From NCBI GenBank assembly GCA_001770205.1, contig MEQL01000013.1, positions 1-52,878 on the forward strand: a stretch of 52,878 nucleotides of DNA, read 5' to 3'. Each line of letters opens with the position of its first letter. Positions within the stretch are counted from its first letter, which is position 1. Source of the stretch: Bdellovibrionales bacterium RIFOXYD12_FULL_39_22. GTDB taxonomy: Bacteria > Bdellovibrionota > Bacteriovoracia > Bacteriovoracales > Bacteriovoracaceae. Below, piece after piece: positions 11,583 through 47,435 of this stretch. Position numbers and translations under genes: made by a program. The notes under the pieces are model-generated. The model saw nothing but the letters and a program-made list of their open reading frames with translations, ran no database searches and had not been told where the DNA came from.

Positions 11583-12326
11583 TTAACGCCCAAGCAATCC
11601 TAATACCCCATTGATAAAGGCCAAAGGGTGAATTGCACAACCAGGAACATAAAGCACCGGCCTGATCTGTTCAAGGAAGCGACGATCTAGAGCATCTGAA
11701 TCTTTATAGAGTCCGCCAGTGATTGCACACGCCCCAACAGCAATAACAAATTTGGGATCCGGCATTCCTTCATAGGCCAACTCTAAGGCCTCGGCCATAT
11801 TTTCAGAAATAGGGCCACTAATAACTAGGCCATCCGCATGGCGAGGAGAGGCAACAAATTCAATTCCAAAGCGGCCCATATCGAAGTTAACGTTACCGGC
11901 GGCATTTAATTCCAATTCACAGCCGTTGCACCCTCCGGCGGAAACAGAGCGAAGCTTCAGGGAGCGGCCAAATATTTTTTTTATAGCATCATTAGCGCGT
12001 ACTTGAAGGCCTGTTATTTTTTCATCAACAATCAAACCCTCCAGTGAGTCTGAAGATATTTTATAATTTTCGCTGAAGCTAATTTTTTTCTGAGGACAAG
12101 CGGCCGCGCAATCATTACAAAAAACACAAAGTCCTAAATCCATTCGCAGTGGCCCTGTTGCAATAGCGCCACTAACCGGACAGGCCTCCATACAGACATT
12201 GCAAGTATTGGGGCAAGTAGTTGGAGAAAATTGTGGAAGGCCACGAAATCCTCGCGGCAAAGCGCCTTTTACATCTGGTACAAACTGTTTACCTTGTGAA
12301 ATTTTCACCCGAAGTGTTTTTAGCAT
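11583..12326 (-). CDS. Ehr/Hyf-type small subunit: NuoI-like 2x[4Fe-4S] domain fused to a NuoB/HyfI-like domain
   Basis: C..CNVCMEACP and CVFCNDCAAACP; GGCNGCELE, ASPRHADGL, GACA, VPGC. Confidence 0.9.
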   Translation of the reverse strand: MLKTLRVKISQGKQFVPDVKGALPRGFRGLPQFSPTTCPNTCNVCMEACPVSGAIATGPLRMDLGLCVFCNDCAAACPQKKISFSENYKISSDSLEGLIVDEKITGLQVRANDAIKKIFGRSLKLRSVSAGGCNGCELELNAAGNVNFDMGRFGIEFVASPRHADGLVISGPISENMAEALELAYEGMPDPKFVIAVGACAITGGLYKDSDALDRRFLEQIRPVLYVPGCAIHPLAFINGVLGLLGR

Positions 12327-12343
12327 TACATCCTCTTATAAAA

Positions 12344-13849
12344 TCACAAATCATTTCCACAGTAGGAAAGATCAAAACTTTTATTACAAATAGGAAAATC
12401 TGAAATCTCATTACCTCGCAAAGATTGCGCTAAAGCAAACCAATTGCGAATCGAAGGATCTTGTACCTTGTAGTGAGCAAGTTTTCCAGAAGGGCCGGTC
12501 TCGAGATAATGCATAACCTCACCTCTCCATCCTTCAATCAGTGAAATGGCATACGCATTACTCTGCGGCGCCTTTAATTCTATTTTTAATTGTAACTTCC
12601 AATCTTTTCTTTCCATTTCATCGAAAGCAGAATTAATCCAATACAAAGATTCATTAATTTCTCGAATACGTAAACAAGCGCGGGCCCAACAATCACCACT
12701 TTCTTCTATCATGGCAACAATTGGCAATTTATCATATGGCGCATTACTGCTGGCAAAATTTTGTCGCAAATCCAGCACTACACCTGACATACGTGCGGCC
12801 ATTCCTACTGCTCCAATATCTATGGCCACTTCCTTTGTAACCACACCTACTCCGCAAAAACGATTTGCCACTAGCTTTGAAGATAAAAATAGATCATTTA
12901 TTTTATCAATGTCTTGCTTAAAAGAAGAAAGAATTATCCTCACTTCGTCTATGAGTGATTTTGTTATAGGTGACCGAACCTCTCCCGGGCGCAACCATCC
13001 TCGACCAAAACGACTTCCTCCTAAGCGCATAGAGGTATTAATTATGGCCGTGCGCAAACGGCCATAGGTCGACCCGCCAGGCAAAAAAGCAATATCGGTG
13101 GAAAGGCCAGAAAGTCCGGCCAAATGCATGGCAATTCTTTCTAACTCCAAAGCAACTCCTCGCACTAACTCAATATCAGCAAGATCGACAATATTAGCAA
13201 CACAAAGATTTTCATAGGCACGACAATAGGCCCAAGTATGAGCAATCGAACTATCACCGGCAATGGTCTCAACAAGAGGTGCCAGTTTGGACATTTCTCC
13301 TCTTAAAAGAAGTGATTCAACATGACGATGTTGATATCCTAATTGAATTTCTAAATGGTGAACCATCTCTCCATAACACATAAAGCGAAAATGTCCTGGC
13401 TCAATTACGCCCGCATGAATGGGGCCAACCCCAACTTCATGAACCTCTTTGCCTTCTAACTTAAAAAAAGGATATTTTTCAAATTGGCCTAAATGGCCGG
13501 ACCCCTTGCGATTTGGATAACGAATTCCTCGCTTCGGCCAGGGATGCTCTTCCGGAGTGATTTTATATTGTTCACAAATTTCACGTTCAAAGCAATGAAA
13601 GGTGGAATATTTTTTTGTAAAAGATGGATAAGTGGAATCACGAGATTTTTTTACACGTAAAACTTGCAGTTTTCCATATCGATCATCTGCCAGTAGTGCG
13701 TTCAAAAAAATTTCTGGAAACCCATAGATCGGACTAGCAAAAAAGCTAACTAATCGCATCCCTCTGGTTAGCATTTCCTCTACTTGATGCTGAAAAACAG
13801 ACATATCCAAGGTGGTGATCTGACTTATCCTTCCAGACAGAATGCTCAT
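12344..13849 (-). CDS. Ehr-type large subunit (NuoC+NuoD/HyfG-like) lacking NiFe-binding motifs
   Basis: FERE, VGPIHAGVIEPGHFRF, LGYQHR, EGWRGE, DPS..NW; ETIAGDSSIAH in place of RxCGxC; C-terminus DFPICNKSFDLSYCGNDL; ATG at 13849 overlaps the upstream stop. Confidence 0.9.
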   Translation of the reverse strand: MSILSGRISQITTLDMSVFQHQVEEMLTRGMRLVSFFASPIYGFPEIFLNALLADDRYGKLQVLRVKKSRDSTYPSFTKKYSTFHCFEREICEQYKITPEEHPWPKRGIRYPNRKGSGHLGQFEKYPFFKLEGKEVHEVGVGPIHAGVIEPGHFRFMCYGEMVHHLEIQLGYQHRHVESLLLRGEMSKLAPLVETIAGDSSIAHTWAYCRAYENLCVANIVDLADIELVRGVALELERIAMHLAGLSGLSTDIAFLPGGSTYGRLRTAIINTSMRLGGSRFGRGWLRPGEVRSPITKSLIDEVRIILSSFKQDIDKINDLFLSSKLVANRFCGVGVVTKEVAIDIGAVGMAARMSGVVLDLRQNFASSNAPYDKLPIVAMIEESGDCWARACLRIREINESLYWINSAFDEMERKDWKLQLKIELKAPQSNAYAISLIEGWRGEVMHYLETGPSGKLAHYKVQDPSIRNWFALAQSLRGNEISDFPICNKSFDLSYCGNDL

Positions 13850-15312
13850 ACTCCGCCTCCAATAATAGTCGCAATTTTTTGCAACAACTCGTTGGCCCCG
13901 GCCGGAATATAAATACCCATGCTGATAAGCAGCAAAGTAAAGAAAATAATTGGCATTAAGGCGAAAAAAGATTCGGGGGCCGGCGACAATTCTTCTGGCG
14001 GATTTCCCCAAATCATTGGAAAAGTTGTGCGGCCAACTGCTACGAAAACTAATGTCATTAAAAATCCAAAAGAGGCAAACACTGCAAAATATCGTCCATC
14101 AATCATGCTCTTCATGATAAATAATTCTCCAAAAAAACTTCCAAAGGGAGCAAACCCCAACAGCGCAAAAACACCAATTAAAAATGCCCAACCAGTAACC
14201 GGCATGCGTTTAATTAATTTCTTTATTCCGCTCATCTCTTCGGTCTTATATATCGTAAAAATATTCCCGCAGGCCAAAAAGAGCATTGCTTTAACCAATG
14301 TATTACTAATTACATAAATCAATACTCCGTAAGCAGAATCCTTACCCAAACTTAGGCCTAATCCAATAGCGATAACCCCCGCATGATTTATAGACGCATA
14401 CGCAATAAGACGTTTGTAATGTTTTTCGGCAACAATATGCAAGAGTGAAATCAGAATCGAAACAAGTCCAACAGTAATTAAAAAATAACGAACGATAGGA
14501 GATTGCAATGGAGAAAAATATTGCATCACTCGGAAAATCATCACCATCACGACATTAAATTGTACTGCCGACAACATTACAGTGGTTGATTGGGGAGCGC
14601 GATCATAGGCCGCTGGAAGCCAGTTATACATAGGAGCAAGGCCTAACTTTGTTGATATCCCAAAAAATATTAGAACAAGGCCTAAATCTCTCCATGGTTG
14701 TTTTCCTAAAACAGATCCAATACCTGAGAGATCTGTAAAAAAGAAACTAACGCTCTCCATTCCTGGCCGAGCATGTAGGCCCTTGGCAAAACATAAAATT
14801 CCCAGCAATACCAGACCTAAGGCCACTAGTGAAAACATCAGATAGCGCCACGCCGCTTGCAATGATTCCTTGCTTTTTTCGTGAAAAATAAGCGGGGTTA
14901 TGGCCAAAGTGCTGGCCTCTAACAAAATTAGCATAAAAAGCAAATGATTGCTCAAAATAGCAAGTACGGAAATAGAAAAGAAAAAAAGTGTGCGCAAAAC
15001 CAGCTCATGAAGCTTTGTGGTCGTTAAATTATTAACAAGAACTCGATTGTGAATATAAAAGCTGGCCCCTACTAAAACACTAGTAACCAACGCTACAAAT
15101 AAACGGGAGATAGCGTCATCGAGAAATAAATTGTTTGCAAAAGGAATAACATTATCAATTGGATTTTGAAGAAGTATATATGTTGAAGTAACAAAAACCA
15201 AAACAGAAATGAACATAAAAATAATTGAAGAATGAAGTGTGCTTTTTTTCCCTAAGAGTAAAATTAAAAAAATTCCAACGAGTGGAATTGCTGCGCTAAT
15301 AATCGGATCCAT
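13846..15312 (-). CDS. hyfF: hydrogenase-4 HyfF-like proton-translocating antiporter subunit
   Basis: Multi-TM; EAS.L, AAWRY, TKLGLAPM..WLP.AY..AP, KRLIAYASI.H.G, PFGSF.GE. Confidence 0.82.
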   Translation of the reverse strand: MDPIISAAIPLVGIFLILLLGKKSTLHSSIIFMFISVLVFVTSTYILLQNPIDNVIPFANNLFLDDAISRLFVALVTSVLVGASFYIHNRVLVNNLTTTKLHELVLRTLFFFSISVLAILSNHLLFMLILLEASTLAITPLIFHEKSKESLQAAWRYLMFSLVALGLVLLGILCFAKGLHARPGMESVSFFFTDLSGIGSVLGKQPWRDLGLVLIFFGISTKLGLAPMYNWLPAAYDRAPQSTTVMLSAVQFNVVMVMIFRVMQYFSPLQSPIVRYFLITVGLVSILISLLHIVAEKHYKRLIAYASINHAGVIAIGLGLSLGKDSAYGVLIYVISNTLVKAMLFLACGNIFTIYKTEEMSGIKKLIKRMPVTGWAFLIGVFALLGFAPFGSFFGELFIMKSMIDGRYFAVFASFGFLMTLVFVAVGRTTFPMIWGNPPEELSPAPESFFALMPIIFFTLLLISMGIYIPAGANELLQKIATIIGGGV

Positions 15313-15910
15313 GCAACTCCTTGATTGAGGCAAATTCCGCCAAAAACTTCCAGAAGAGAGTAATTGTCCATAAGAAAACTACCGCAAATCCAATTTGAAT
15401 AAAAAACGCCTCCTGATGTTTACTAAATGCTTCCAAAAGAATAATCCCGGCCTCAAAAATTAAAATGCCAATAATCTGCCCAACGATAGAGCGTTGATTG
15501 GCCAAGATATAAATTCCAAGTAAAATGGAAGCAGTGGCCGTTCCAAAAAAACCTGCTTGTTGAAAACGCTGTGGGTAAATTACTTGCCCACACCAATATC
15601 CGACGACAATAATAGAAATGGCCAACGTCCAGCTTACTAAATTCGCTGGAATTACATCAAACTCCGCTTTAAAGTTAAATTTTTTTAACAACCAAATCGT
15701 GCCCAGAGGCGCGGCCAAGGAGCGCACTAAAACGAGATCGACAAATTGTACTTGAGAGGAGATTGTTTCAATCCCCTCAAAGCTAAATAGAATAGTCGCA
15801 GAAATAAAAAACTGTACTGCCAAGGTTATAAAGGCCAACCTCCAGGAAGAAATGAAGATCAACATAAACATAGCAATTATGTAACTTCCTAGCAGATAAT
15901 TCATACTCAT
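15296..15910 (-). CDS. hyfE: HyfE-like membrane subunit
   Basis: ~6-7 TM; Q.IG.L.FE.GI motif; position between hyfC and hyfF. Confidence 0.65.
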   Translation of the reverse strand: MSMNYLLGSYIIAMFMLIFISSWRLAFITLAVQFFISATILFSFEGIETISSQVQFVDLVLVRSLAAPLGTIWLLKKFNFKAEFDVIPANLVSWTLAISIIVVGYWCGQVIYPQRFQQAGFFGTATASILLGIYILANQRSIVGQIIGILIFEAGIILLEAFSKHQEAFFIQIGFAVVFLWTITLFWKFLAEFASIKELHGSDY

Positions 15911-16866
15911 ATCATCCCCGCCTTTCCTAAAGATGCCAGTAACATTGCTATTAATCCGGCAAGTACGGCCATCAGAGCATAGGCCGGAATAAATCTCATT
16001 TTAAAGCGTGGAACCCAAGACTCAATTAGTCCAATAAGGATAGATATTGCCACAATAATAAGAAGAGAAGTTATCCAGGAAAAATAAAATAGTGTCCCTC
16101 CAATTTTTCCATTTTGGAGAAGAAATGGATTTAAAAGTGCAGCAATTAGGCCGGCCAAGGATACTAACTTTAGCGCCGAGCCATACTGGATCATGGCCAA
16201 TTCTGGCCCGCTTGTATCTAAAATCATTACCTCATGAATCATAGTTAATTCTAAATGGGTGTTTGGATCATCTACAGGAACTCGTGCCGCCTCAATTTGT
16301 AAAAGAATAAATAAAGAGAAAAATAATAAAAACTTTATTATCCAAATTAAAAGGCCACTTGCTTGTACAACCACTAAACTTTCAAACGAGCTGTTGCCTG
16401 AAATAATCCCTAAGGTGCCAATGGAAAAAAAAAGGGCAGGTTCAATATAAGCAGAATAAGTTGCTTCCCTTCCGGCCCCCATCCCCTCGAAAGAGCTCCC
16501 GGTATCTAGGGCCGCTAAAATTATAAATATTCGACCTAATCCTAAAAGATAGACAAAATAGACAAAGTCATATTTAAAAGAGATAGGGGCCACTCCGGGA
16601 ACAATTGGAGATAGTAGGGATGCCAGCAAGGCCGTTGCTAAAATTATGGCCGGTGCTAATTGGAAAATCCAAGAACTGTTTTCGCTATATACCGACCTTT
16701 TTTTTAACAAACGATATAGATCAAAAAAAGATTGATTTAAATTAGGGCCTTTGCGGCCGGACCAAATAGATTTAACTCGATTAATTATTCCAATTACAAA
16801 AATTGGACAAATGATAAGTATGAGCAGATGAATAGTTGTATTTATGGCCCACGATACATTAATCAT
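15907..16866 (-). CDS. hyfC: HyfC/NuoH-like membrane subunit
   Basis: GRKGP...Q...DL.RLL.K, LDTGSSFEGMGA.RE, EAARVPVDDPNTHLELTMIHEVM; ATGA overlap with the hyfB stop. Confidence 0.88.
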   Translation of the reverse strand: MINVSWAINTTIHLLILIICPIFVIGIINRVKSIWSGRKGPNLNQSFFDLYRLLKKRSVYSENSSWIFQLAPAIILATALLASLLSPIVPGVAPISFKYDFVYFVYLLGLGRIFIILAALDTGSSFEGMGAGREATYSAYIEPALFFSIGTLGIISGNSSFESLVVVQASGLLIWIIKFLLFFSLFILLQIEAARVPVDDPNTHLELTMIHEVMILDTSGPELAMIQYGSALKLVSLAGLIAALLNPFLLQNGKIGGTLFYFSWITSLLIIVAISILIGLIESWVPRFKMRFIPAYALMAVLAGLIAMLLASLGKAGMI

Positions 16867-18863
16867 TTTGCCACCACCCAAATACCCAGAATAATCAAGG
16901 TAAGCAATCCCACGGCCAATCCATATCTGGAATCATCCGCAACTTTATAGATCCACTTGGTAACAATTTCATCACCTTCATTCAAAATATGAAAAATTCT
17001 TCGCTCCACCACATCTGGATAGTTTGTCTGTAAAAATCCATTCTCAGGAAAAGGGCCATGTGGTAATTTTTTTTTGAATACCATTTGCAAGAGGCGAGGA
17101 CGAAAGATAGAGAGAAACTGATCAGAGAAGGAAGAACCACTATATTGCATACGCGAATTAATTGCAGTATATCCACATCCCCAAGTAACGTGTCGGCGAT
17201 GGCCCTTGGATAATAAAATTTTTCGCAACATAAAAATTACAAAAACTAATGAGATCAATCCCAAATTGATTGCTCCTAACGGCATAATTAGTTTATGCAT
17301 CTGGGATTTTATTGCCAATGCAGAGGAAATTCCTGCCAATTTTAAAAATTGTTCTACTACCGACAGTAACAAAGTAATTCCCGCGAATGGAACTAGGCCC
17401 AAAATGATTATAAAAATTGCATGAATCATCATTGGAAATCTCATAGAAAAGGGAGCTTCTCCTGTACACTCTACACTACTGTCTCGGCCTGTACCTAAAA
17501 AAGATAGGCCAAAAATTCTAGCAATTGAAAACAAAGAAGTAGCACCAACTAATGCTAAAATGGTGGCCACAATAATAAAAACAGTGAAGGCCTCCACCGT
17601 TGGAATCATTCCTTTTGGCGCCATTCCACTTAACAATCCACTATAGATAATAAATTCACTGACCAAACCATTTAGAGGTGGTAGCGCAGCAATGGCAATC
17701 CCGCCAAGGAAAAAGAAAAAACTACTCTGGGGCATTTTCTTTATTAGTCCACCCAATCTATCCATATCAACTGTGTGACACATTCTATAAACTGCCCCTG
17801 CGGCGTAAAAAAGGAGACATTTGAAAGCGGCGTGGTTTAGTAAGTGCAAAGTTGCCCCAATAAACCCGAGAGCGATAAGTGTTGGTTGATGCCAAGAGAG
17901 GCCCAAATATCCAAGACCTATCCCTATTCCAACAATTCCATAATTTTCAGTGGAAGAGTAACCCAAAACTCGTTTAATATCTCGCTGTGTTACCGTGTAA
18001 AGAACTCCCATTAACGCAGAGATAGTGGAAAAAATCAAAATAGTCCACCCAATCCATTCATCTGGAATTCCTAATAATAGGGTAAACCTTAAAATGCCAT
18101 AGATTCCTACATTGTTTTTAACACCAGACATTTGTGCTGAAATATGTGCGGGGGCCACTGCATGAGCACGAGGCAACCAGGTGTGCAACGGAAAATATGC
18201 AGACTTCAGGCCGAAAGAAGTCAAAAGCAAAATAACGGTGGCATTTCGCAAAAAAACATCAGACTTTAAAAACTTATCGTACATGGGAAAATCAAAAGAG
18301 TTAGTGGCACTATGAAGAATCATTAAAGCTGCAATTAAAAAAATTAAACTTATATGTGATGCCACTAAATAATTAAAACCAGCGAAACGAATCTTCTGAT
18401 TTTTATAATCAAAAATAACTGCCAACCAAGTTGCCAAAGTGGCAATTTCCCAGCCAAGTAAAAACACCAGAGAATTTTCTACTGCATAAATTAGAATATA
18501 AGATAGCGCCAACATATTAAGTAGAGCGAAATGAACACCGATTCTTCGTTTGTCAAATGAAGGCGCTAAATATCCTAAAGCGTAAATTGTTCCCAACAAG
18601 TTCATTGGCAACGAAAAAAGCAAAAAGAAAGCTCCCAGCGCATCAACTTTTATCCCAATGCGATCGATGGGAAAACTCCACTGAAATTCACCAACAATTG
18701 AAGGCGCGCCAGTTAAAATAGGAATAGTCGCCAACAAGATGGCAACGACAGCAACTATTTGAGTCATAATAGTTGCCCAAGCACGCTGGCGATTGCCAGG
18801 GACAAAAAGTGCCAGGGCCACCCCAGTAGTAAGCGAGATAATTGCTACAAAAATGTACAACAT
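16863..18863 (-). CDS. hyfB: HyfB/NuoL-like proton-translocating subunit
   Basis: FLLGWE, FGLKS..FPLHTWLPRAH..AP, KR.L.YSSTEN.G, LPPLNG.VSE, TWGCGY...SRMQY. Confidence 0.88.
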   Translation of the reverse strand: MLYIFVAIISLTTGVALALFVPGNRQRAWATIMTQIVAVVAILLATIPILTGAPSIVGEFQWSFPIDRIGIKVDALGAFFLLFSLPMNLLGTIYALGYLAPSFDKRRIGVHFALLNMLALSYILIYAVENSLVFLLGWEIATLATWLAVIFDYKNQKIRFAGFNYLVASHISLIFLIAALMILHSATNSFDFPMYDKFLKSDVFLRNATVILLLTSFGLKSAYFPLHTWLPRAHAVAPAHISAQMSGVKNNVGIYGILRFTLLLGIPDEWIGWTILIFSTISALMGVLYTVTQRDIKRVLGYSSTENYGIVGIGIGLGYLGLSWHQPTLIALGFIGATLHLLNHAAFKCLLFYAAGAVYRMCHTVDMDRLGGLIKKMPQSSFFFFLGGIAIAALPPLNGLVSEFIIYSGLLSGMAPKGMIPTVEAFTVFIIVATILALVGATSLFSIARIFGLSFLGTGRDSSVECTGEAPFSMRFPMMIHAIFIIILGLVPFAGITLLLSVVEQFLKLAGISSALAIKSQMHKLIMPLGAINLGLISLVFVIFMLRKILLSKGHRRHVTWGCGYTAINSRMQYSGSSFSDQFLSIFRPRLLQMVFKKKLPHGPFPENGFLQTNYPDVVERRIFHILNEGDEIVTKWIYKVADDSRYGLAVGLLTLIILGIWVVAK

Positions 18864-18966
18864 GAAAATTGATGCTAGACCTCCGCATTAGAGATTGCAA
18901 CTGAAAATTTATTTGAAGGTATTGGCAATCTAAAAAAAATGGCAAAGCTAAATAACGCGTGTTAAC

Positions 18967-22018: not shown

Positions 22019-22034
22019 CGTAGGCCCAAACGGT

Positions 22035-24662: not shown

Positions 24663-24963
24663 GAAAAGACTCCTTAGGAGCTAAAAAATTTCTGATATCT
24701 TAAATAGTGATTTTGTATTAAATAGTCGCATGTTTAAAACAAAAGGGCCAAACGCCAACAAATACAGAATAGTTTTCCTCGCCACTCAAATAGTATACTT
24801 TTTTAATGTGTCTTCACCAATAGGCCATATTCTTTTTGTCGGCAAGTTTTTCCGCAAAATAGCATTTGTTTTTTTTTCAACCGTGGGGGATAATTCTGCT
24901 CATATAATGAGTGAAAAGAAGCACACTCGTTCATTGTCTTAACCAATCTGCAAAGGAGAATAT

Positions 24964-25971
24964 ATGTCCAAACACCTTTCAACTTTTTTTAGCTTTATTT
25001 TGTCGTTTGTTCTGACGACTCAATCAATTGTCTATGCGGGAGAAGAGGGAGAAATTAAAACACCCAACTTTTTAAAAAGTATTGTTGATGATTACAACAA
25101 AAATCTGACTGCTGAGGCCATAGTCGCCAAATTTTCCAAACAAGATACCAAGCTAGGCCAAGAGATGCACACCTTTTTAGAACAGCAAAAAATCACGGCC
25201 CTGCCACCGATAAAATACAATGACGGTGAAATGATGTTTTCATGGGGAGGAGTTGAGACCTATTTTTCAGTTGAAAAAATAGATATTGATTCAGTAACAT
25301 TTAAAATAAACGGCCTGGATATAAAAATATTGCATACCGAGTCCTCTCCAGGAATACTTTTTGAAAAATTAAAAAATCAATTTCCCGAAAGTAAAAGTTC
25401 AGTGATGCGACTATTTGATTTTCTAATTCCAAATGCCGCTGCTAACCCTTTGTTTATACTTATTTTGGCAGCGATTATAGTTTTTGCTGCGTTTGCTGAA
25501 CGCGCGATTGTAGGAATTACCTGTGGCACCTCTGATCTTTTCGCCCCACGCCTCATGTCTTTTCATCAAATGCTCTGCCCAGTAAACTACGTATCTGTTT
25601 CTCCGACAGTCTTGGCCCAAATAAATAAAATGAAAAGCGATGAACTTGCTAAGTTTAACACTAATGCGAATTTTTTATTAGAAAAAGCATCTACAATATA
25701 TTCTGATCATTGCACAAAACCGCCGACTGGGATATGTGCTGCAACTGAAACGCGAAAGCAGCAACTACAGGAATTTTGCAATACCATAAAAAATGTACGG
25801 ACTTGTATTACCGATTATCATGCATTCGGCATAAAGACGGAAATCACAAAGATGGGAGAAGTCACTACTCCCGATAATAGCGTTTTTGGCGACGATAATA
25901 AACGTGAGCCAAAAAATGTTGAGCGATACCCCAGAGATGATGGAGAGATTCCACGCACGAAGAAAAAATAG
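24964..25971 (+). CDS. hypothetical exported/membrane protein with a Cys-containing C-terminal half
   Basis: Signal peptide (VYA), internal hydrophobic segment, six Cys downstream; AAGGAG RBS. Confidence 0.75.
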   Translation: MSKHLSTFFSFILSFVLTTQSIVYAGEEGEIKTPNFLKSIVDDYNKNLTAEAIVAKFSKQDTKLGQEMHTFLEQQKITALPPIKYNDGEMMFSWGGVETYFSVEKIDIDSVTFKINGLDIKILHTESSPGILFEKLKNQFPESKSSVMRLFDFLIPNAAANPLFILILAAIIVFAAFAERAIVGITCGTSDLFAPRLMSFHQMLCPVNYVSVSPTVLAQINKMKSDELAKFNTNANFLLEKASTIYSDHCTKPPTGICAATETRKQQLQEFCNTIKNVRTCITDYHAFGIKTEITKMGEVTTPDNSVFGDDNKREPKNVERYPRDDGEIPRTKKK

Positions 25972-25974
25972 CTA

Positions 25975-26508
25975 TCACTTGCGAATAATCCCATGCAAAA
26001 TTTTGCTGGACACTTCGTTTGAGAAATTAGTTATTGCGATAATTGATGGGCCGGCGTAATTACTTCCTCCGCCGGCATCTTTATGTGTAATTTTTTTTAT
26101 CTTGCCTGGACATATCTGGCCGTTTTCATGTTTATTTTGCTTGTTTTGCTTATCTTTTTCCTCTAGGCAATCAACTATCCCCTTCATCTCCTTCGGATAT
26201 GAACTTATATCATTCCCAATCCAAACAACCTCATCATTGTTGGCAATAGCGGAAAGCTTTAACCAAAAAAAACTTTCCGCATGGCGCTTAATAAATAGCT
26301 TATCCGGAGGCCAACCAACTACATTGGGCAAATAGGTGAAGCGAAAGTGCAAGCGAGCAATTGCCTCACTGATATTTGTCTTCTCTATTAATTGCCAAAC
26401 ATCTGCGGAATGCTCTCGGATCAAAAAACGATCCAGAGAGCCTATCGCAAAAATTAAAAAGGCCGTCCAAAAAATTAGGATTGCTCTATGCTTCAAGTGA
26501 TCCCCCAC
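25975..26508 (-). CDS. hypothetical protein with an N-terminal TM anchor
   Basis: 177 aa ORF overlapping the 3' end of the upstream peptidase gene. Confidence 0.6.
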   Translation of the reverse strand: MGDHLKHRAILIFWTAFLIFAIGSLDRFLIREHSADVWQLIEKTNISEAIARLHFRFTYLPNVVGWPPDKLFIKRHAESFFWLKLSAIANNDEVVWIGNDISSYPKEMKGIVDCLEEKDKQNKQNKHENGQICPGKIKKITHKDAGGGSNYAGPSIIAITNFSNEVSSKILHGIIRK

Positions 26509-27605
26509 ATTATGATTAATAAAAAAATAACAACCATTACTGGAATAAATGGATCTTTATTGAAACGATTATTCTTCAAATGCAAAAGTTCATTGACTCT
26601 GTTTTTAGTAGTATAAATTTGTTCACGCCGGGCCAACTCCTCTGCTCCCACCAAAACCTCTCCTGCTACTCGTTCCACCTCTCCCTGCATTTTAATCAAG
26701 GCAGAGGCCAATGCCATGGGATTTTTTGTTGCTTCGCTTGCCAGATAATCACAGGCCGATTCTCTTACCTCTATAATGTCGCGAAAAATTGCTAACGTGA
26801 ATGGATTAAATGGTTGAAGAGCACGCATTGACCATATTAGGAGTGTACGAAGATTATCACCATAGATCACATGGGCCACTTCATGTGCCACCGTGGCCAT
26901 TACTTCTTCCTCATCCAAAGTATCAATAAGTGCGCTAGAGAGATAAATTTTATGATGAAAAATACCTTTTAGTAGAGCAAACTGCTCTCGATCTTCTACT
27001 TTAAATATTTCCACTTTTTTATAACGAGGAATTTTGTAATTAGATTTTTCTAGTCCTTGCAAAACTGCCTTTAAAATTAACTCCAATTTATCATCTCGTT
27101 TTGCTGCACTTGTATCCAAATGTTGGCCACCACCTCGTCTGCCTAAAATAATAAATTCCTGAAAAACAAATATAAAGGTGCTTCCGGCCAATATGGCCAT
27201 AAGTACTAACCACCAATAACTAGTTTCCCAGATAGCACTATTCCACAACTTAAGTCGGATCATTTGATAGGGCATCTGCACAGCAAAATCGCTTCCTGAA
27301 ACCACTAAAAGAGTCTTTATAATTATGACCACCACGGGAAAAACAACAATATATTCAAGGGATTTTGCCACTATTACCGGAGAAAGTGGACGCAGCAGGC
27401 GAATAACCATCTTAAACCAAAAATAGGCAACACCCACTTGCAGGGTATTCATCAAAAGAATTTCGAAAAAAATGATTCTTCCCATAGTTCTGACCGAAAA
27501 GATGATTATACACAAAAAACTAAGAGCAACTAAGTACTTTTTCCTAGATTCATAAGTACTCAGCCTAATATAGTTTGAATAAGAAAGATGCGATACTGGA
27601 TACAA
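26493..27605 (-). CDS. M56/M48 (BlaR1/HtpX-like) membrane zinc metallopeptidase; start may be further downstream
   Basis: N-terminal TMs; L.EEE..A..AHEVAH..GDN; RE..CD..A...P.ALASALIK. Confidence 0.85.
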   Translation of the reverse strand: MYPVSHLSYSNYIRLSTYESRKKYLVALSFLCIIIFSVRTMGRIIFFEILLMNTLQVGVAYFWFKMVIRLLRPLSPVIVAKSLEYIVVFPVVVIIIKTLLVVSGSDFAVQMPYQMIRLKLWNSAIWETSYWWLVLMAILAGSTFIFVFQEFIILGRRGGGQHLDTSAAKRDDKLELILKAVLQGLEKSNYKIPRYKKVEIFKVEDREQFALLKGIFHHKIYLSSALIDTLDEEEVMATVAHEVAHVIYGDNLRTLLIWSMRALQPFNPFTLAIFRDIIEVRESACDYLASEATKNPMALASALIKMQGEVERVAGEVLVGAEELARREQIYTTKNRVNELLHLKNNRFNKDPFIPVMVVIFLLIIMWGIT

Positions 27606-27654
27606 GAAACAAAGCGAGCATGCGTGCTCAAAGAATCTAACCCGGAGAGTAATT

Positions 27655-28095
27655 ATGAAAAAGTATCAAGCAAATGACGTAGTAAGTTATGGAGTATATG
27701 CTTCTATCAACGCCTTGGACATAAAATTTATCAGCGCAGACGGAGAAAGCTTAGGTGGAAAAGAACAAGCCAGTTATTTTAAAATTCCCACCGCCCTAAT
27801 GGTAATTGCCGCCCCACTCATTGGCGGTGCGTTTGTCCTTTTCTTCCCCTTTATGATTATCTTGATGGTTTGCACAGTACCGCTATACTATTTTATAAGA
27901 TTAATTACTGTAAATGCCGGCTCTGCTTCCGAAATGGTGGTTAAAAATGTGGGACACTTTACCTGGGAACCAATGACGGCATATTTGAATAAACGCAAAA
28001 ATCTAGGTAATGTACCAGAGGGCAAAATACGCAAAACTCCTGAAGAATTAAAGGATCTAGAAAAAGAAATTGCTGAACGTAGAAATAAAAAATAG
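27655..28095 (+). CDS. small membrane protein heading the cytochrome operon
   Basis: Soluble N-terminal domain, hydrophobic hairpin (APLIGGAFVLFFPF), charged C-terminal helix; GGAG RBS. Confidence 0.8.
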   Translation: MKKYQANDVVSYGVYASINALDIKFISADGESLGGKEQASYFKIPTALMVIAAPLIGGAFVLFFPFMIILMVCTVPLYYFIRLITVNAGSASEMVVKNVGHFTWEPMTAYLNKRKNLGNVPEGKIRKTPEELKDLEKEIAERRNKK

Positions 28096-28129
28096 GAAGC
28101 TGGATCATAGAAAGATCAAATATTACATA

Positions 28130-29134
28130 ATGAAACTGCTGTTATCGATTTTTATCTCTTCCTTTACTCTCTCCCTAATGGGAGAGAGTTCTGTTTTAAA
28201 TGACTCTTGTCGTAATTGTCATTTACCACAAGATAACACTTTTCACTCCTCCGCCCATGGGCCCAAATTACTATGCACCGATTGCCACAATGATTATGGC
28301 GGATTTCCCCATGAGAAGCGCCATTTTGAAAACAAACGTCAATACTCCCTGGATAAAGTCAAAACCTGTCAGCGCTGTCACTACTCTCACTACACCCGCG
28401 CACTGGATAGCGTTCACTATGTACAATTGAAGGCCGGAAACCTAGATGCTGCGATGTGTACCGATTGTCATGGACACCATGATATAAAACGGCCGGGGGC
28501 CACGCGCACTGACATCACGAAACGCTGCGCGAAATGCCACGACGATATTGACAAGGTCTATCGCCAGTCCATTCACGGCAGTGCTATGGCCAATGAAAAC
28601 AATCAAGACGTTCCGGTTTGTACAGATTGTCATACCTCTCACGAAATAAAAGAACACAATGACAGCTCTTTTCACATCAATGCTTATAAAACCTGTGGGC
28701 GATGCCACGGTGATCAAGAAAAGATGGAACGATATGGCCTCAATACTAACATTTTAACCTCCTACTTGGATGATTTTCATGGGGCCTCTAATCGTATTTA
28801 TTCCCAGCAAAAACAGCACTCCGAGAAATTAATTGCCGCCTGTTATGATTGCCACGGAGTACATGATATAAAATCAAAAAAAGAATCACAAACTCACGAA
28901 GAAGCACGGGCCAAAATTGTACAGATGTGTAAAAAATGTCACCTGAACGCTACTCCCTCTTTCTCCAACGCCTGGCTATCACACTATCCCCCAACACTAA
29001 AATCTGCTCCCTTGGTTTGGCTAGTTAAATGGTTTTATAGAATAATGATTCCGCTGGCCATCATTGGATTAATTTTGCACATTCTCTTACACATTTGGCG
29101 AGCATCTAGTCGCGGAGATCGCCTAAAAAAGTAA
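28130..29134 (+). CDS. nonaheme cytochrome c with a C-terminal TM helix
   Basis: Signal peptide; 9 CxxCH (CRNCH, CTDCH, CQRCH, CTDCH, CAKCH, CTDCH, CGRCH, CYDCH, CKKCH); C-terminal helix ILHILLH. Confidence 0.93.
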   Translation: MKLLLSIFISSFTLSLMGESSVLNDSCRNCHLPQDNTFHSSAHGPKLLCTDCHNDYGGFPHEKRHFENKRQYSLDKVKTCQRCHYSHYTRALDSVHYVQLKAGNLDAAMCTDCHGHHDIKRPGATRTDITKRCAKCHDDIDKVYRQSIHGSAMANENNQDVPVCTDCHTSHEIKEHNDSSFHINAYKTCGRCHGDQEKMERYGLNTNILTSYLDDFHGASNRIYSQQKQHSEKLIAACYDCHGVHDIKSKKESQTHEEARAKIVQMCKKCHLNATPSFSNAWLSHYPPTLKSAPLVWLVKWFYRIMIPLAIIGLILHILLHIWRASSRGDRLKK

Positions 29135-29158
29135 TATTCAAACAGACAGGACAAATTT

Positions 29159-29872
29159 ATGCACGGCCCTAAAATAATTCATGACGAGAACGGTAAAATA
29201 TTCATCGAACGTTTTTCTCTAATTCGCCGAATTGAACATATCCTTATAATTTTGGCCTTCCTTATTTTGGCCATTACCGGTATGCCACAAAAATTTTATG
29301 AAACTGCCTGGCTCGGTGATCTCATGGATCTAATTGGTGGATTAGATCGCGCTCGGACCATTCATCACTTAACAGGAATTTTATTTTCCATCCAGCTAAT
29401 GCTACACCTGCTTTATATTGTTATAGGTATTGCTCTCAAAAAAATCTCGCTCTCTTTGCTTCCACGTATGCAAGATTGGCGCGATCTATCTTCTAGTATA
29501 AAATATTATTTTGGATATAAAAAAACTCCTCCGCAATACGACACCTTCGATTACAAACAAAAATTTGAATATGTCAGTATTCTTTCTGCTGCAATTATAA
29601 TGTCAATCTCCGGAATAGTGCTACTTGCCCCAGTTTTTGCGACTACGTTTTTTAGCGGACAAATAGTCCCGGCAGCTCGCATCGCTCACTCTAACGAAGC
29701 ACTCCTGGCAATTTTACTCATTCTCATTTGGCACATCTATGGAGCACATTTCGCGCCAGAAACCTTTCCAATGGATAAAACTATTTTTACTGGCCTTATA
29801 AATAAAGATGACTTAAAGGCAAAACATCCATTAGAATATAACCGTCTCTTTCCCGAAGATAAAAAAAACTAA
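29159..29872 (+). CDS. FdnI/HydC-type diheme cytochrome b subunit
   Basis: RFS...RIEH, ITG.PQKF, IHH..G, H, Y.QKFEY, AHS.EA.LA, WHIY. Confidence 0.9.
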   Translation: MHGPKIIHDENGKIFIERFSLIRRIEHILIILAFLILAITGMPQKFYETAWLGDLMDLIGGLDRARTIHHLTGILFSIQLMLHLLYIVIGIALKKISLSLLPRMQDWRDLSSSIKYYFGYKKTPPQYDTFDYKQKFEYVSILSAAIIMSISGIVLLAPVFATTFFSGQIVPAARIAHSNEALLAILLILIWHIYGAHFAPETFPMDKTIFTGLINKDDLKAKHPLEYNRLFPEDKKN

Positions 29873-29882
29873 GGAATACACC

Positions 29883-30560
29883 ATGCAAAAAAAATTTCTA
29901 TTTTTACTAATAGTAATCTTTCTGTTTGCCAATTGGGGACTGGCCTTTAACACCCATCATCCTATTAATATGCCAATGCCGAAGGATAGTAAATTGCCAA
30001 CCAAAAATGGAAAATTTTGGTGCACCACTTGTCATATTGGCCATTCACCTAATGGAAAAACTGCCAAAACAGCGCAAGATAAAAAAGGCAATCCGGCCGG
30101 ATTGCGCATGCCCTACAATGAGTTGTGCCTTACCTGTCATACGGCCGCTGGTAACAATGATAAAAATCACATCAATGTTAAAATTAATAAAATGGCCAAA
30201 GATGCTCCTGATATTGCAGTAGAAACTTGTGCTAGTTGCCATAGCATGCATTTTGCAAAACAAGGACTAACTCTCTATGTTGAGTCTAATCTTTGTATGA
30301 ATTGTCACACCGAAAAACGCAAACAAATGCATAAGCCGATGCCGATGATGGCCGCCCTGGCCAGTACAAAAAAAATACGCCTAGAAAATGAGCAAGTGGC
30401 CTGTCAAACTTGTCACTCTCCTCATAATGAGCAAATCTCCAAACACTACTTGCGCGAGAAAAAAGATGATCTTTTACAATTTTGCTCTACCTGCCATGGA
30501 GAAGGAACGATCACAATTTTCGACAACTACCATAAAAAACTAAGTAAAAAAAATAAGTAA
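29883..30560 (+). CDS. periplasmic hexaheme cytochrome c (cytochrome c3-like)
   Basis: Signal peptide; CTTCH, CLTCH, CASCH, CMNCH, CQTCH, CSTCH. Confidence 0.92.
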   Translation: MQKKFLFLLIVIFLFANWGLAFNTHHPINMPMPKDSKLPTKNGKFWCTTCHIGHSPNGKTAKTAQDKKGNPAGLRMPYNELCLTCHTAAGNNDKNHINVKINKMAKDAPDIAVETCASCHSMHFAKQGLTLYVESNLCMNCHTEKRKQMHKPMPMMAALASTKKIRLENEQVACQTCHSPHNEQISKHYLREKKDDLLQFCSTCHGEGTITIFDNYHKKLSKKNK

Positions 30561-30578
30561 TAACCAGAGAGTACTGAC

Positions 30579-31859
30579 ATGATTATTTTTCGCCTCCTTT
30601 TTATTTTCTTAATAATGACGACAATTAGCATGTCCGTCGACGCAAAAGAGATCGACAAAACTTTTGCTAACCACCCCAAATTTCCCAACTTGCAAAAATC
30701 TTTTAATTCTCACAATGAAGTAATGAAAGCATGTGTTACCTGTCACAATGAATCCGGGGGCCACATTCAAGAAGTGTTGCACTGGGTATGGAAGTGTGAT
30801 GCCAACAACACGCGGGTACAGATAGAAGGCGAAGACATGAGTGGGGATTGTATTGATTGTCACAGCGATTTTCAAAGTTATTCCCAAACACACACTCCAC
30901 CAGCAAATAAAACGCTAAAAGCTGACTGCCTTATCTGTCACGATACTAGCGACAATTATGCTAAGCACATAAAAGGCCACAGTAAAAAAGAACCACCGCT
31001 TCCTGCCGAATTAATGAAAAAAATTGGAAATGGAATTGGATATCCAACCAGAAATACCTGCGGCTACTGTCACTTCGCAGAAGAGCATACCATATTCAAT
31101 GATTTGAATAATTCCTTCATTGCTCCCGACAAAACTATCGATGTGCACATGGATCAGTCTGGAATAAATTTTCAATGCAGTATGTGTCATTCAACTTTTA
31201 AACATACTCTATCTGATAACTGTGAAACGACCTCTTTAGAACATAAGCGCGAGTTAAAAATAAGAGGTGATGGCGATAGCGACATCGGAATGGATTTTGC
31301 TTCTTGTGAATCATGCCACTCTCAAAACCCCCACAAAAGTGATCAAAAACTTAATGACCATACTGATATCGTGGCCTGCCAAACCTGTCATATAACCGAC
31401 AAAAGAACACCCGGCCCCATCGAATATCACTGGTACAGCGGCGTAACCATTCCTGAAAAATATAATGATTTACCTGATGGAACCCTCTTGCGACTGCGCA
31501 ATACTCCTCTCGGAAGAAAAACGGCCGGAGCGCGACTCTTTCCATTTCGCGCGACTAAAGAAGAATCAACTTCGGCCGAAGATAAACAAAAACATATCTC
31601 TGCCACCAAAACTTACTGGCCAATTAATCATGGAGTATCTCCCAAAGAGCAAGCACTGGCCTGTGTGGACTGTCATAAAAACGGCCCAACCATATTGGCC
31701 GCTTTGGAATCATCTATTCGGCCATATATTCTCGGTAACTATGAAGGCCCAATGGATTTACTGGCCTATTTGGGAATTTTTCTCACAATGATGGGCGTTT
31801 CTATTCATGGTGGAATCCGCTTAACCTCCTCAATTTTTAGAAAAATGAAAAGGAAATAA
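30579..31859 (+). CDS. octaheme tetrathionate reductase (Otr)-family cytochrome c, membrane anchored, divergent
   Basis: 8 CxxCH; HW.W, DCLICHD, P.R..CG.CHF, DVHM, LNDH...VACQTCHI, WPINHGVSPKEQAL.C.DCH; C-terminal TM ending HGG.R. Confidence 0.82.
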   Translation: MIIFRLLFIFLIMTTISMSVDAKEIDKTFANHPKFPNLQKSFNSHNEVMKACVTCHNESGGHIQEVLHWVWKCDANNTRVQIEGEDMSGDCIDCHSDFQSYSQTHTPPANKTLKADCLICHDTSDNYAKHIKGHSKKEPPLPAELMKKIGNGIGYPTRNTCGYCHFAEEHTIFNDLNNSFIAPDKTIDVHMDQSGINFQCSMCHSTFKHTLSDNCETTSLEHKRELKIRGDGDSDIGMDFASCESCHSQNPHKSDQKLNDHTDIVACQTCHITDKRTPGPIEYHWYSGVTIPEKYNDLPDGTLLRLRNTPLGRKTAGARLFPFRATKEESTSAEDKQKHISATKTYWPINHGVSPKEQALACVDCHKNGPTILAALESSIRPYILGNYEGPMDLLAYLGIFLTMMGVSIHGGIRLTSSIFRKMKRK

Positions 31860-31861
31860 AT

Positions 31862-32563
31862 ATGAAAACCATCGTAATCTATAAGGGCTTCGAGCGATTT
31901 TGGCACTGGAGTCAAACTACCCTCATCTCGCTTTTAATTATCAGCGGTTTTGAAATACATGGAACTTATTCAATTTTAGGCTTTACGACTACCGTTACTT
32001 TGCACAATTTTTTAGCGTGGCTGCTAATGATTCTTATTCTTTTTGCTATTTTCTGGCATTTCACCACGGGTGAATGGAAGCAATATATTCCCACAACCGA
32101 AAAATTATTAGCGGTAATGCGCTACTACATTTTGGGAATCTTTAAAGGAGAGCACCACCCGGCAGACAAGTCTGTTAACTCCAAATTAAATCCTATGCAA
32201 CGTCTTGCCTATCTGCAATTAAAACTTTTTCTTATTCCACTACAAATATTCAGTGGAGTTTTGTATTATTATTACAACAACTGGAGCGATATTAACTATT
32301 TCCTTAACCACTTTCTCGCAATGTTTGCCAGCGAATATACCGAAATAAATTTTTTCTATTACTTAACGCTTGAGCGCATTGCTATAATTCATGCCGCCTG
32401 CGCCTATGCGCTGGCCATGTTTATAGTGATCCATGTTTATCTAACGACTACCGGCCACACGGTTTGGGCACACATTCAATCAATGATTACTGGCCTTGAA
32501 GAAGTTCCTGATGATCATGATAAAAATGAGCATGGACACGGACACGGGCATGACGGACACTAA
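31862..32563 (+). CDS. thiosulfate reductase PhsC/YdhU-like cytochrome b with a His-rich tail
   Basis: Y..FERFWHW.Q, GFEIHG, FWHFTTGEWKQY, NP.QRLAY, HVYLTTTG, SMITG.E; ends HGHGHGHDGH. Confidence 0.9.
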   Translation: MKTIVIYKGFERFWHWSQTTLISLLIISGFEIHGTYSILGFTTTVTLHNFLAWLLMILILFAIFWHFTTGEWKQYIPTTEKLLAVMRYYILGIFKGEHHPADKSVNSKLNPMQRLAYLQLKLFLIPLQIFSGVLYYYYNNWSDINYFLNHFLAMFASEYTEINFFYYLTLERIAIIHAACAYALAMFIVIHVYLTTTGHTVWAHIQSMITGLEEVPDDHDKNEHGHGHGHDGH

Positions 32564-32565
32564 AG

Positions 32566-33402
32566 ATGAATGGTAAAATAACTATTCTGGCCGAAAACTA
32601 CGCGCTACATACCCCTTACGCAGAAGATGGCATCTGCATGCTTATTGCTGTCGATAATAAATTCTATCTCTTCGACACCGGATTCACCGGCGAATGCGCT
32701 CTAAAAAATATCGAGGTTATGCAGATAAAAATACCGCAACTTGCAGGGATTATTCTGTCACATGGACATAATGATCATACCGGAGGAATTGCCTCCATTA
32801 TTACACGCTTTGGCCCCTGTCCAATCTATGCTCATCCAAACATATTTAATAAAACTTTTTCTGTCAGAGGAAAAAACAAAGAGTACATTGGAATTCCTTT
32901 TGAGCGCGACTATCTAGAAAAAAAACTTAAAATCCCTTTTCACTTCTCGCGGGATTTTACACAAATCGATAAAAATATCTATATGACTGGCACGATCCCG
33001 ATGGCCAATAAATATGAAAAAATCCCTCGCCATTTTAAGATTAGTAATGGCAGTGACAATATTGATGATTTTATTGAAGACACCTTTGAAGACGATAACG
33101 CCGTAGTTATCTCTGATCCCAAAGGTCTAACTGTTTTACTGGGGTGCGCACATCGCGGAGTAATAAACAGCTTAGAATATGTTCAGCAAAAACTTCCACA
33201 TAAAAAAATTCATACCGTTATTGGCGGAACTCATCTTAAAGAGGCCGGGGAAGAACACTTTGAATTTGTAGTGGATTATCTAAAAAAACTAGAGCTAGAC
33301 ACCTTTGCCCCTGGCCATTGCACCGGCATTAATAATATTTTTAAGTTACAAAATATCTTTGGTACCTGCTTGCATCCGGCCTTTTGCGGAGAAAAATTTT
33401 AG
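32566..33402 (+). CDS. MBL-fold metallo-hydrolase (COG1237-like)
   Basis: LFDTG, SHGHNDHTGG, DD, GCAH.G..N, GGTHL, PGHCTG. Confidence 0.9.
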   Translation: MNGKITILAENYALHTPYAEDGICMLIAVDNKFYLFDTGFTGECALKNIEVMQIKIPQLAGIILSHGHNDHTGGIASIITRFGPCPIYAHPNIFNKTFSVRGKNKEYIGIPFERDYLEKKLKIPFHFSRDFTQIDKNIYMTGTIPMANKYEKIPRHFKISNGSDNIDDFIEDTFEDDNAVVISDPKGLTVLLGCAHRGVINSLEYVQQKLPHKKIHTVIGGTHLKEAGEEHFEFVVDYLKKLELDTFAPGHCTGINNIFKLQNIFGTCLHPAFCGEKF

Positions 33403-47427: not shown

Positions 47428-47435
47428 CTGCAAAA

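Follow-up and report, generated by a model that had tools for sequence, protein, structure and literature searches.

Introduction

The subject of this study is a 22-kb block of genes (positions 11583-33402) on contig MEQL01000013.1 of Bdellovibrionales bacterium RIFOXYD12_FULL_39_22, in which a two-component system with a putative heme-bearing sensor kinase lies next to an operon for multiheme cytochromes c and b-type cytochromes. Its closest described relatives are found among respiratory complexes and among sensory domains. In CbcBA of Geobacter sulfurreducens, the C-terminal helix of the cytochrome c subunit supplies a ligand to a b heme, and CbcL combines a nine-heme domain and a dihaem cytochrome b domain with six transmembrane (TM) helices in one polypeptide. 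Among sensors, the sCache_heme domain (DUF3365/Tll0287, GSU0582) is put forward in a 2026 preprint (10.64898/2026.02.01.703092) as the first of the Cache domains to hold a cofactor covalently. The block also carries the genes of an Ehr complex, a type of enzyme defined in PMC6349859 by subunits like those of group-4 hydrogenases and complex I and by a large subunit devoid of Ni-Fe ligands.

We analyzed the block within a 52,878-nt window, that is, the whole stretch of the contig under study, by means of an open reading frame (ORF) map and family scans against Pfam and NCBIfam, and surveyed the phylum in a sample of 400 genomes (sampled genomes bear G-numbers, fetched loci L-numbers). The original prediction, made from the sequence alone, had proposed a co-regulated respiratory module running from a cytoplasmic donor through Ehr and the quinone pool to periplasmic multiheme acceptors. 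Our results make it fairly probable that the block is not one respiratory chain and that it is composed of three separately inherited units lying side by side: an Ehr cassette, a sensor-cytochrome module, and a c6-c8-cytb2 module that is followed here by a gene for an MBL-fold hydrolase. With more reserve, we propose that the sensor kinase may represent an undescribed double-Cache family with covalent heme c, built into a quinol:cytochrome c oxidoreductase and reading its electron flux or redox poise directly.

The sensor kinase and its family

The kinase gene (18967-21336, + strand) encodes, in this order, a first TM helix, a periplasmic dCache domain, a second TM helix and HAMP, HisKA_3 and HATPase domains. 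A single CHGCH sequence lies between the two TM helices (residues 244-248, nt 19696-19710), and CxxCH is invariant in 6/6 and 7/7 aligned sensor relatives. The periplasmic dCache domain is therefore a probable carrier of covalently bound heme c. The block had been said to contain a divergent NarX/NarL pair with a periplasmic CxxCH; the motif and a NarL-type regulator are indeed there, but the name NarX does not fit. The pair shares with NarX/NarQ-NarL the HAMP-HisKA_3-HATPase core and a regulator made of REC and GerE domains, whereas its sensor has a dCache fold with a presumed heme instead of the four-helix P-box that senses nitrate, and the NCBIfam scores of the kinase (76 bits for NarX and 93 bits for NarQ, against cut-offs of 578 and 553) come from the kinase core only.

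The AlphaFold2 model of the sensor (pLDDT 80, pTM 0.77) displays a double-Cache fold, and its best Foldseek hits are dCache sensor domains (E ~1e-9). In the model, strand 196-200 runs into the CHGCH motif (200-204) borne by helix 203-207, which is followed by a disordered loop and by strand 230-236; the motif is thus placed directly after beta3 of the membrane-proximal module, with a short helix ahead of beta4. Pfam gives dCache_1 (PF02743) 16.5 bits (E 0.006) in the window sensor, against a gathering score of 45, and among 50 scanned family representatives the same domain escaped detection (E>1e-5) in some, scored under the cut-off in others and passed it in several, the highest score being 85.7 bits. 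A sensor profile searched against 1.84 billion cluster representatives gave 599 matches at E<=1e-3, including 83 at E<=1e-30. Among the best 149 matches, which we examined, 139 span the full domain; CxxCH is found in 126/139, CHxCH in 124/139 and a DH pair exactly 19 residues upstream in 110/139, so that the family signature reads DH-x17-CHxCH. Pfam scans of 50 members mostly returned HAMP-(GAF)-HisKA_3-HATPase, with HisKA in some, and the named members belong to metagenome-assembled genomes (MAGs) labelled Myxococcota, Chloroflexota and Dehalococcoidia. A search of genome contigs with the whole kinase yielded nothing beyond two kinases of a generic HisKA_3 type, one in a Pseudomonadota MAG and one in a Neptuniibacter. 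In the full-text literature outside subscription papers and supplements, no description of a DH-x17-CHxCH dCache family was found.

The histidine that follows the first Cys of the motif, His245 (19699-19701), is present in 124/126 of the CxxCH-bearing family members and could be a second axial ligand, a ligand in a swapped dimer or part of a metal site.

Comparison with sCache_heme shows one common trait: in GSU0582 and GSU0935, CXXCH also lies between beta3 and beta4 of the Cache module. The window sensor differs in having two Cache modules (dCache_1-like), of which the membrane-proximal one bears the motif, and in its own DH-x17-CHxCH signature with the essentially invariant extra His. PF11845 gave no match to the window sensor at E<=10; searched genome-wide, this profile recovered three true members elsewhere, the window kinase not being among them, and hhalign of the window sensor with one PF11845 protein of the genome reported 1% probability and aligned only the 10-residue motif.

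A fusion protein connects the kinase with one of the b-type cytochromes of the operon. P0229 (910 aa) starts with a cytochrome b and continues with a dCache domain bearing CHECH, a HAMP domain and HisKA_3. Its N-terminus is 39% identical to cytb1 over the whole length of cytb1 (E 5e-57) and is unrelated to cytb2 (E 0.23), and the 910-aa form occurs in 5/6 members of its 90% cluster, from several assemblies. As P0229 joins precisely the two proteins that are linked by gene neighbourhood, it favours a physical or electron-transfer connection between them. Prediction of a complex between kinase residues 20-385 and cytb1, made in two runs without controls, scored 0.00, which speaks neither for nor against contact between them.

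The c9/cytb1 complex and the conserved gene order

The operon counts 9 + 6 + 8 = 23 CxxCH motifs and two b-type cytochromes matching Ni_hydr_CYTB, exactly as first described. Its c9 gene (28130..29134, + strand; the ORF call spans 28070-29134, the likely true start being 28130) encodes a periplasmic nonaheme cytochrome c with nine CxxCH motifs and a His-bearing C-terminal TM helix. The c9 family is composed of ~360-aa proteins (3632 matches at E<=1e-5) whose sole name is 'cytochrome c3 family'; nine motifs occur in 77 of the 119 best homologs, 112 of these 119 finish in a His-containing TM helix, and PF01292 was found in none of the 120 best. The partner of c9, cytb1 (29159..29872, +), is an FdnI-like dihaem cytochrome b with four TM helices (Pfam Ni_hydr_CYTB; TIGR01583 at 1e-20, below cut-off) and invariant His residues at positions 27, 69, 83, 177, 192 and 223.

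Compared by description with the Geobacter complexes, c9/cytb1 is designed like CbcBA, a multiheme cytochrome c with a His-bearing C-terminal TM helix next to a separate 4-TM dihaem cytochrome b, and resembles CbcL in its nine hemes and its FdnI/HydC-like b domain. It differs from CbcL in being encoded by two genes (nine CxxCH and one TM helix in c9, four TM helices in cytb1) instead of one fused protein with six TM helices, and from CbcA in having nine hemes and not seven. FdnHI and hydrogenase/HydC are built alike, with a helix-anchored periplasmic subunit beside a four-helix dihaem cytochrome b. By analogy, c9/cytb1 is most likely a (mena)quinol:periplasmic-cytochrome oxidoreductase, with electrons presumably leaving the quinol for the periplasm. 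The parallel extends to regulation, as cbcBA too has a dedicated regulator gene beside it (BccR); that one is a sigma-54 activator, whereas the window would use a heme-sensing HisKA_3/NarL pair.

In the survey, the sensor domain (E<=1e-5) and c9 (E<=1e-40) were detected in an identical set of 8/400 genomes (G124, G222, G269, G278, G304, G312, G379 and G384), and no genome had just one of them. The gene order is conserved as well: histidine kinase and response regulator, then hyp177 and an M48 peptidase on the opposite strand, then hyp146-c9-cytb1. It is complete in G269, G312, G124 (with a 5-kb insert) and the metagenome contigs L067 and L071, and can be followed up to the contig ends in G304 and G379; the kinase itself lies at a contig end in G278 and G384. 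The order is thus kept in at least five lineages and, by accession spacing, in one Myxococcota-labelled MAG: kinase and c9 accessions are five apart, the spacing expected for the conserved order, in a Bdellovibrionales MAG (OFZ17265/OFZ17260) and in the Myxococcota-labelled one (MFZ4577793/MFZ4577798). Of the proposed co-regulated respiratory module, the part made of kinase, regulator, peptidase and c9/cytb1 therefore stands, since these genes travel together and share a conserved operator (see below); Ehr falls outside it. The heme-dCache two-component system and the c9/cytochrome b complex probably form one conserved, co-regulated respiratory unit.

Other bc-type genes occur around these loci. 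Upstream of the heme kinase, three lineages encode a hybrid kinase together with a 513-584-aa protein of CbcL/MtrH-like architecture, in which a 5-heme c part and a cytochrome b part are fused (the fused gene at L049 10059-11813 in G269, L053 795-2336 in G222 and L067 1071-2630), so that split and fused bc-type modules stand side by side. In G312 (L057 1874-3720), a 7-heme cytochrome and a cytb2-like cytochrome b follow c9-cytb1, an arrangement that parallels the module appended in the window.

Regulator, peptidase, small proteins and operator

The response regulator (21287..22018, +, likely start 21329) belongs to the NarL/FixJ family (Response_reg 3e-26, GerE 5e-20). It adjoins the kinase in 6/6 GTDB kinase loci whose contig continues past the kinase and in 5/7 additional metagenome loci; in the remaining two, the contig breaks off within the kinase gene or shortly beyond it. 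It is followed in the window by a hybrid kinase (22035..24662, -) with dCache_1, HAMP, PAS, HisKA, HATPase and REC domains, whose identification in the original prediction was correct, and by hyp335 (24964..25971, +), a hypothetical protein of 335 aa with a signal peptide, one TM helix and no family match. Neither gene was found at this position in other module loci, where hyp335 has no homolog; the two are, judging from this comparison, local insertions outside the conserved unit.

On the opposite strand, hyp177 (25975..26508, -), a conserved small protein with an N-terminal TM helix, lies downstream of the peptidase gene; it has tblastn matches in G269, G222, G312, G124, G304, G379, L067 and L071, and no Pfam, NCBIfam or Atlas match. 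The membrane zinc peptidase (26493..27605, -, likely start 27485; motif HEVAH) had been assigned to M56: the peptidase is present, but its Pfam score is below cut-off for M56 (PF05569, 27.8 vs 31) and above it for M48 (PF01435, 34.8 vs 20.3; 1.9e-8), so we refer to it as an M48-family, BlaR1/M56-like enzyme. The first gene of the cytochrome operon, hyp146 (27655..28095, +), encodes a conserved small membrane protein; an alignment of eight sequences contains no conserved Cys or His, and its only family match is a weak one to DUF4014. It precedes c9 in other module loci and c6 in G276.

The divergent M48/hyp146 promoter region contains an inverted repeat, CTAGG-N8-CCTAG (CTAAGTACTTTTTCCTAG, 27530..27547, +), followed by a third half-site-like sequence, TAAGTACTC. 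This putative operator is 108 bp upstream of the hyp146 ATG and falls inside the long ORF call of the peptidase, which suggests the Met codon at 27485 as the probable true start of the peptidase. Between their M48 and hyp146 genes, G269, G222, G312 and L067 carry CTAGGTACTTTTTCCTAG, with the same 5-bp inverted repeat, 8-bp spacer and third half-site. The window operator has one mismatch to this sequence and is the sole match in the window (0.05 expected) and the sole site with <=2 mismatches in the 3.95-Mb genome; across 938 kb of fetched loci, operator sites occur at this position exclusively, oriented as hyp146. None was found in the ehrA-kinase intergenic region, which contains the Ehr promoter. 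We infer that the operator is paired with the adjacent NarL-type regulator, and we take its half-site to be similar to the NarL heptamer.

Two further elements were observed around hyp146. A palindrome, GAGCATGCGTGCTC, lies at 27615-27630 in its 5' leader, between operator and start codon, and a hairpin with a 10-bp stem and a T-rich tail (28166-28189, +) lies just past its end, within the signal-peptide codons of c9; the hairpin could be a hyp146/c9 attenuator, or be due to chance.

The c6-c8-cytb2 module

Downstream of cytb1, with intergenic gaps of 2-24 bp, the operon continues with genes encoding a soluble periplasmic hexaheme cytochrome c (c6, 29883..30560, +; six CxxCH, signal peptide only), an octaheme cytochrome (c8, 30579..31859, +; eight CxxCH, His-bearing C-terminal TM helix), the PhsC-like cytochrome b partner of c8 (cytb2, 31862..32563, +; Pfam Ni_hydr_CYTB 5e-25, PRK15006 1e-22, below cut-off) and, as last gene after a 2-bp gap, an MBL-fold hydrolase (32566..33402, +; Pfam Lactamase_B 1.5e-11).

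The octaheme tetrathionate reductase (Otr) reduces tetrathionate, nitrite and hydroxylamine, and the Lys of its segment 'LGK[KR]..N.FC', located between hemes 1 and 2, is a ligand of the active-site heme. The c8 protein is a short variant of this family. It matches Otr of Shewanella (PDB 1SP3) with an E of 2e-44 and shares with it eight CxxCH in the same order; its match to TIGR04315 covers residues 30-285 only and scores 192.8 bits, the cut-off being 375. Most family members found end in a TM helix with His, like c8; fusion to a cytb2-like cytochrome b is seen in some (P0282, P0289). Only two close relatives of c8 were recovered (45% and 40% identity), the next ones being canonical ~530-aa proteins at <=35% identity. 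In an alignment of 15 sequences, c8 and its two relatives (P0275, P0276) miss ~100 residues between hemes 7 and 8 and do not have the 'LGK[KR]..N.FC' segment, which is present in the 12 canonical sequences. As the segment with the Lys ligand is missing, c8 may serve in electron transfer and not as a reductase of the canonical Otr type.

A family relative, G276, has its own cluster of a hyp146-like gene, c6, c8 and cytb2, in which the gene after c8 is 61% identical to cytb2. Searches of this genome with Ehr (E<=1e-50), kinase-sensor and c9 queries found nothing at the thresholds used, and its cluster lacks cytb1 as well; the MBL-fold hydrolase was not found there either and is specific to the genome under study. 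The existence of a cluster without c9, kinase and Ehr indicates that c6-c8-cytb2 is a separate module, here placed in the same operon as c9, and probably under the same control. It also speaks against the chain once drawn from Ehr to the octaheme cytochrome, since no Ehr ortholog at E<=1e-50 was found in the genome of the best c8 ortholog.

These data bear on the possibility that the sensor heme binds a small ligand such as NO, nitrite, O2 or sulfide, and that the operon encodes a quinol-linked reductase or detoxifying system for that ligand with c8 as its catalytic component. Such an assignment would agree with the homology of c8 to Otr and its substrates, with the presence in the genome of NrfA and of a 780-aa COX1-family ORF of qNor-like size, and with the preprint (10.64898/2026.02.01.703092), in which signalling proteins with sCache_heme are NO sensors. 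We nevertheless find it unlikely. The conserved partner of the kinase is c9/cytb1 and not c8: in the eight module genomes, the c8 query gave partial matches to canonical Otr-family proteins (31-36% identity) in four and none in the other four, and the sole full-length ortholog is that of G276, where kinase sensor and c9 were not found. Moreover, the c8 subfamily is devoid of the Lys-ligand segment, and the kinase-cytb1 fusion points toward electron transfer.

The Ehr cassette

The Ni-free Ehr complex announced at the left of the block is confirmed: six minus-strand genes (11583-18863) encode it, and its large subunit lacks the CxxC pairs of NiFe enzymes. The gene names EhrA-S follow what we take to be the Geobacter nomenclature, which reportedly originates from Coppi in 2005. 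EhrS (11583..12326, -) is a NuoB-like small subunit fused to an N-terminal NuoI-like 2x[4Fe-4S] domain (Pfam Oxidored_q6 3e-26 and Fer4; NCBIfam NuoB/NuoI), with all four cluster cysteines kept. EhrL (12344..13849, -; likely true start at the Met at 13849, as in the Atlas gene call) is the NuoC/NuoD-like large subunit without Ni-Fe cysteines (Complex1_49kDa 2.6e-34). The membrane subunits are EhrD (13846..15333, -; Mrp/NuoN/HyfF-like antiporter subunit, Proton_antipo_M 1e-38, HyfF 1e-58, below cut-off), EhrC (15296..15910, -; seven TM helices by hydropathy, weakly HyfE-like, NCBIfam PRK11492 4e-4), EhrB (15907..16881, -; NuoH-like, NADHdh 1.3e-31) and EhrA (16863..18863, -; NuoL/HyfB-like antiporter subunit, Proton_antipo_M 3.6e-48, HyfB 2e-125, below cut-off).

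At the NiFe motif positions, EhrL has 'ETIAGDSS..H' in place of CGxC and 'DFPICNKSF' in place of DPCxxC; no CxxC pair occurs in the mature protein, and AGD[ST] and DFP[IL]CNKSF are kept in 14/14 aligned orthologs. EhrL thus agrees with the published definition of Ehr. PMC6349859 describes the same subunit set, Mrp-type antiporter subunits and a large subunit without Ni-Fe ligands; the window differs in having no adjacent formate dehydrogenase or other donor module and in the fused 2x[4Fe-4S] domain of its EhrS. From its sequence, the cassette is a self-contained Ni-free complex-I/group-4-hydrogenase-like oxidoreductase, predicted to be ion-translocating. Three more NuoD-like genes were noticed in the genome (G000; contigs C45, 3644-4366 (+), C10 and C12), encoding a 589-aa NuoCD, a 398-aa NuoD and a divergent 542-aa NuoCD-like protein, and no Ni-Fe motif was found in any of its four NuoD-like genes.

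EhrL orthologs (E<=1e-50) are present in 14/400 genomes and in just 2/100 of the window's own family, the closest (54-63% identity) belonging to other families. All of these loci except that of G255 were fetched, and 8 of the 13 reach at least 11 kb past ehrA. The Ehr genes are clustered in 13/13 and relatives keep the order of the six genes, some clusters being cut by contig ends and one (G315) having a different order. No match to kinase, regulator, c9, cytb1, c6, c8 or cytb2 was obtained in their flanks, and no Ehr gene lies within 6-15 kb upstream of any kinase locus. Nor does Ehr have a conserved flanking partner, as only a small ORF in 4/14 genomes and generic kinases were found. Ehr thus behaves as an independent cassette. 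The small ORF (~145-210 aa) adjoins the Ehr cluster in G124, G210, G315 and G384 among the 14 compared (13 fetched and the window), on the ehrA side in G124, G210 and G384, and is absent from the window.

The single chain from cytoplasmic donor to Ehr, quinone and periplasmic multiheme acceptors, co-regulated with the heme kinase pair and the 23-heme operon, therefore looks improbable to us. In its favour, 103 bp separate ehrA from the divergently oriented kinase gene in this genome, the nearest relatives of EhrL, kinase and c9 all belong to one other family (f14), and Ehr is present elsewhere in the genome in 5/8 kinase/c9 genomes, against 9/392 of the others. This last association can be explained by shared lifestyle or ancestry, because 7/8 kinase/c9 genomes belong to one family. 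On the other side, nine Ehr genomes have no module and three module genomes have no Ehr, module genes are missing from the fetched Ehr loci and Ehr from the kinase loci, there is no conserved neighbour, and the operator recurs neither between ehrA and the kinase nor anywhere else in the genome. A comparison of neighbourhoods across genomes, suggested together with the chain, thus associates the CxxCH-kinase with nonaheme and cytochrome b genes, and never places Ehr beside them at the loci fetched.

Proposed mechanism

We propose that the two-component system (heme-c dCache kinase and NarL-type regulator), the divergent M48/hyp177 pair and the operon hyp146-c9-cytb1 would act as one module. The sensor heme would report the redox poise of the c9/cytb1 complex or of the periplasmic cytochrome pool, possibly through direct contact between kinase and cytb1. 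The kinase would then phosphorylate the regulator, and the latter would set the transcription of the cytochrome operon by binding CTAGG-N8-CCTAG, the operator in the promoter region between the divergent M48 and hyp146 genes.

Several points weigh against this scheme and against the separation of its module from Ehr. Heme attachment to the sensor is deduced solely from the motif and its periplasmic location, and the kinase-cytb1 fusion comes from one single 90%-identity cluster. G222 keeps the gene order, but cytb1 was not found after c9. With most co-occurring genomes in one family (7/8), the phyletic match reflects few independent events, namely three families including the window's own and one Myxococcota-labelled MAG. 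The match to the operator drops to 4 mismatches in L071, in G124 no site with <=2 mismatches was found, and the pairing of operator and regulator is conjectural. As to Ehr, its enrichment in kinase/c9 genomes has been given above, contig ends in G124 and G278 leave room for Ehr-module adjacency, and some functional link between the two may still exist.

Flanks and genome context

The block had been placed between housekeeping genes. This holds for the left flank (TsaD, KsgA, SmpB) and is not clear for the right one, where a trypsin-like protein, a CDF transporter and a racemase are encoded. The left-flank synteny TsaD-KsgA-SmpB-h160 stops exactly at the block in seven family relatives, and none of the right-flank genes was found within ~13 kb of it in these seven. 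No tRNA or tmRNA was found at the block edges, and the GC content is level throughout the block. The synteny data speak neither for nor against insertion of the 22 kb in one piece. It is hardly credible that co-location here means nothing, with a patchwork at a synteny breakpoint and a kinase and regulator controlling something else: the left-flank break, the unconserved right flank and the local insertions (hybrid kinase, hyp335) would fit such a picture, but gene order, phyletic pattern, operator and fusion all show the kinase-to-cytb1 unit to be conserved.

The whole genome (3.95 Mb) contains 27 ORFs with at least three CxxCH and 200 such motifs altogether, so the block is no isolated anaerobic island surrounded by a purely aerobic gene complement. 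The genome also encodes NrfA, a single 780-aa COX1-family ORF and two [NiFe]-hydrogenase large subunits. The database names of the closest c9 and kinase homologs, Bdellovibrionales or Bdellovibrionota, agree with the reading of the host as a member of Bdellovibrionota. Promoter-like sites were not in excess over expectation (48 vs 42.4±7.0 in shuffled sequence); terminator-like sites were (23 vs 12.4±3.6), and we drew no operon boundaries from them. A look-up of RNA sequencing runs for 26000-33400 returned no entry.

Outside the block, a 440-aa ORF with three CxxCH (7338-8660, +) lies directly upstream of TsaD and has homologs at the same place in G021 and G007; it appears to be a syntenic family-level cytochrome with no relation to the block. 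The tRNA-Lys that ARAGORN calls at 9395-9469 (-), within the TsaD gene (8669-9754), is probably spurious. Toward the right end of the window (47186-48719), a tRNA-Ser(GGA) abuts a phage-type integrase gene (47436-48719, -), and the pair looks like the edge of an integrated element.

Significance

The link between Ehr and the cytochromes, tempting as it was, is removed here as unsupported. What emerges is a testable regulon with a defined kinase, regulator, operator and target operon. The heme dCache kinase suggests a second class of Cache domains with covalent heme, with no detectable sequence relation to sCache_heme; if this is true, the Cache superfamily would contain heme c in two independent instances. 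The sensor family spans hundreds of 50%-identity clusters, from MAGs labelled Bdellovibrionota, Myxococcota and Chloroflexota. The linkage, and in one case fusion, of the kinase to a CbcBA/CbcL-like complex suggests a way for cells respiring with multiheme cytochromes to sense the redox state of their own chain, which bears on how Geobacter-type bc complexes are switched with potential.

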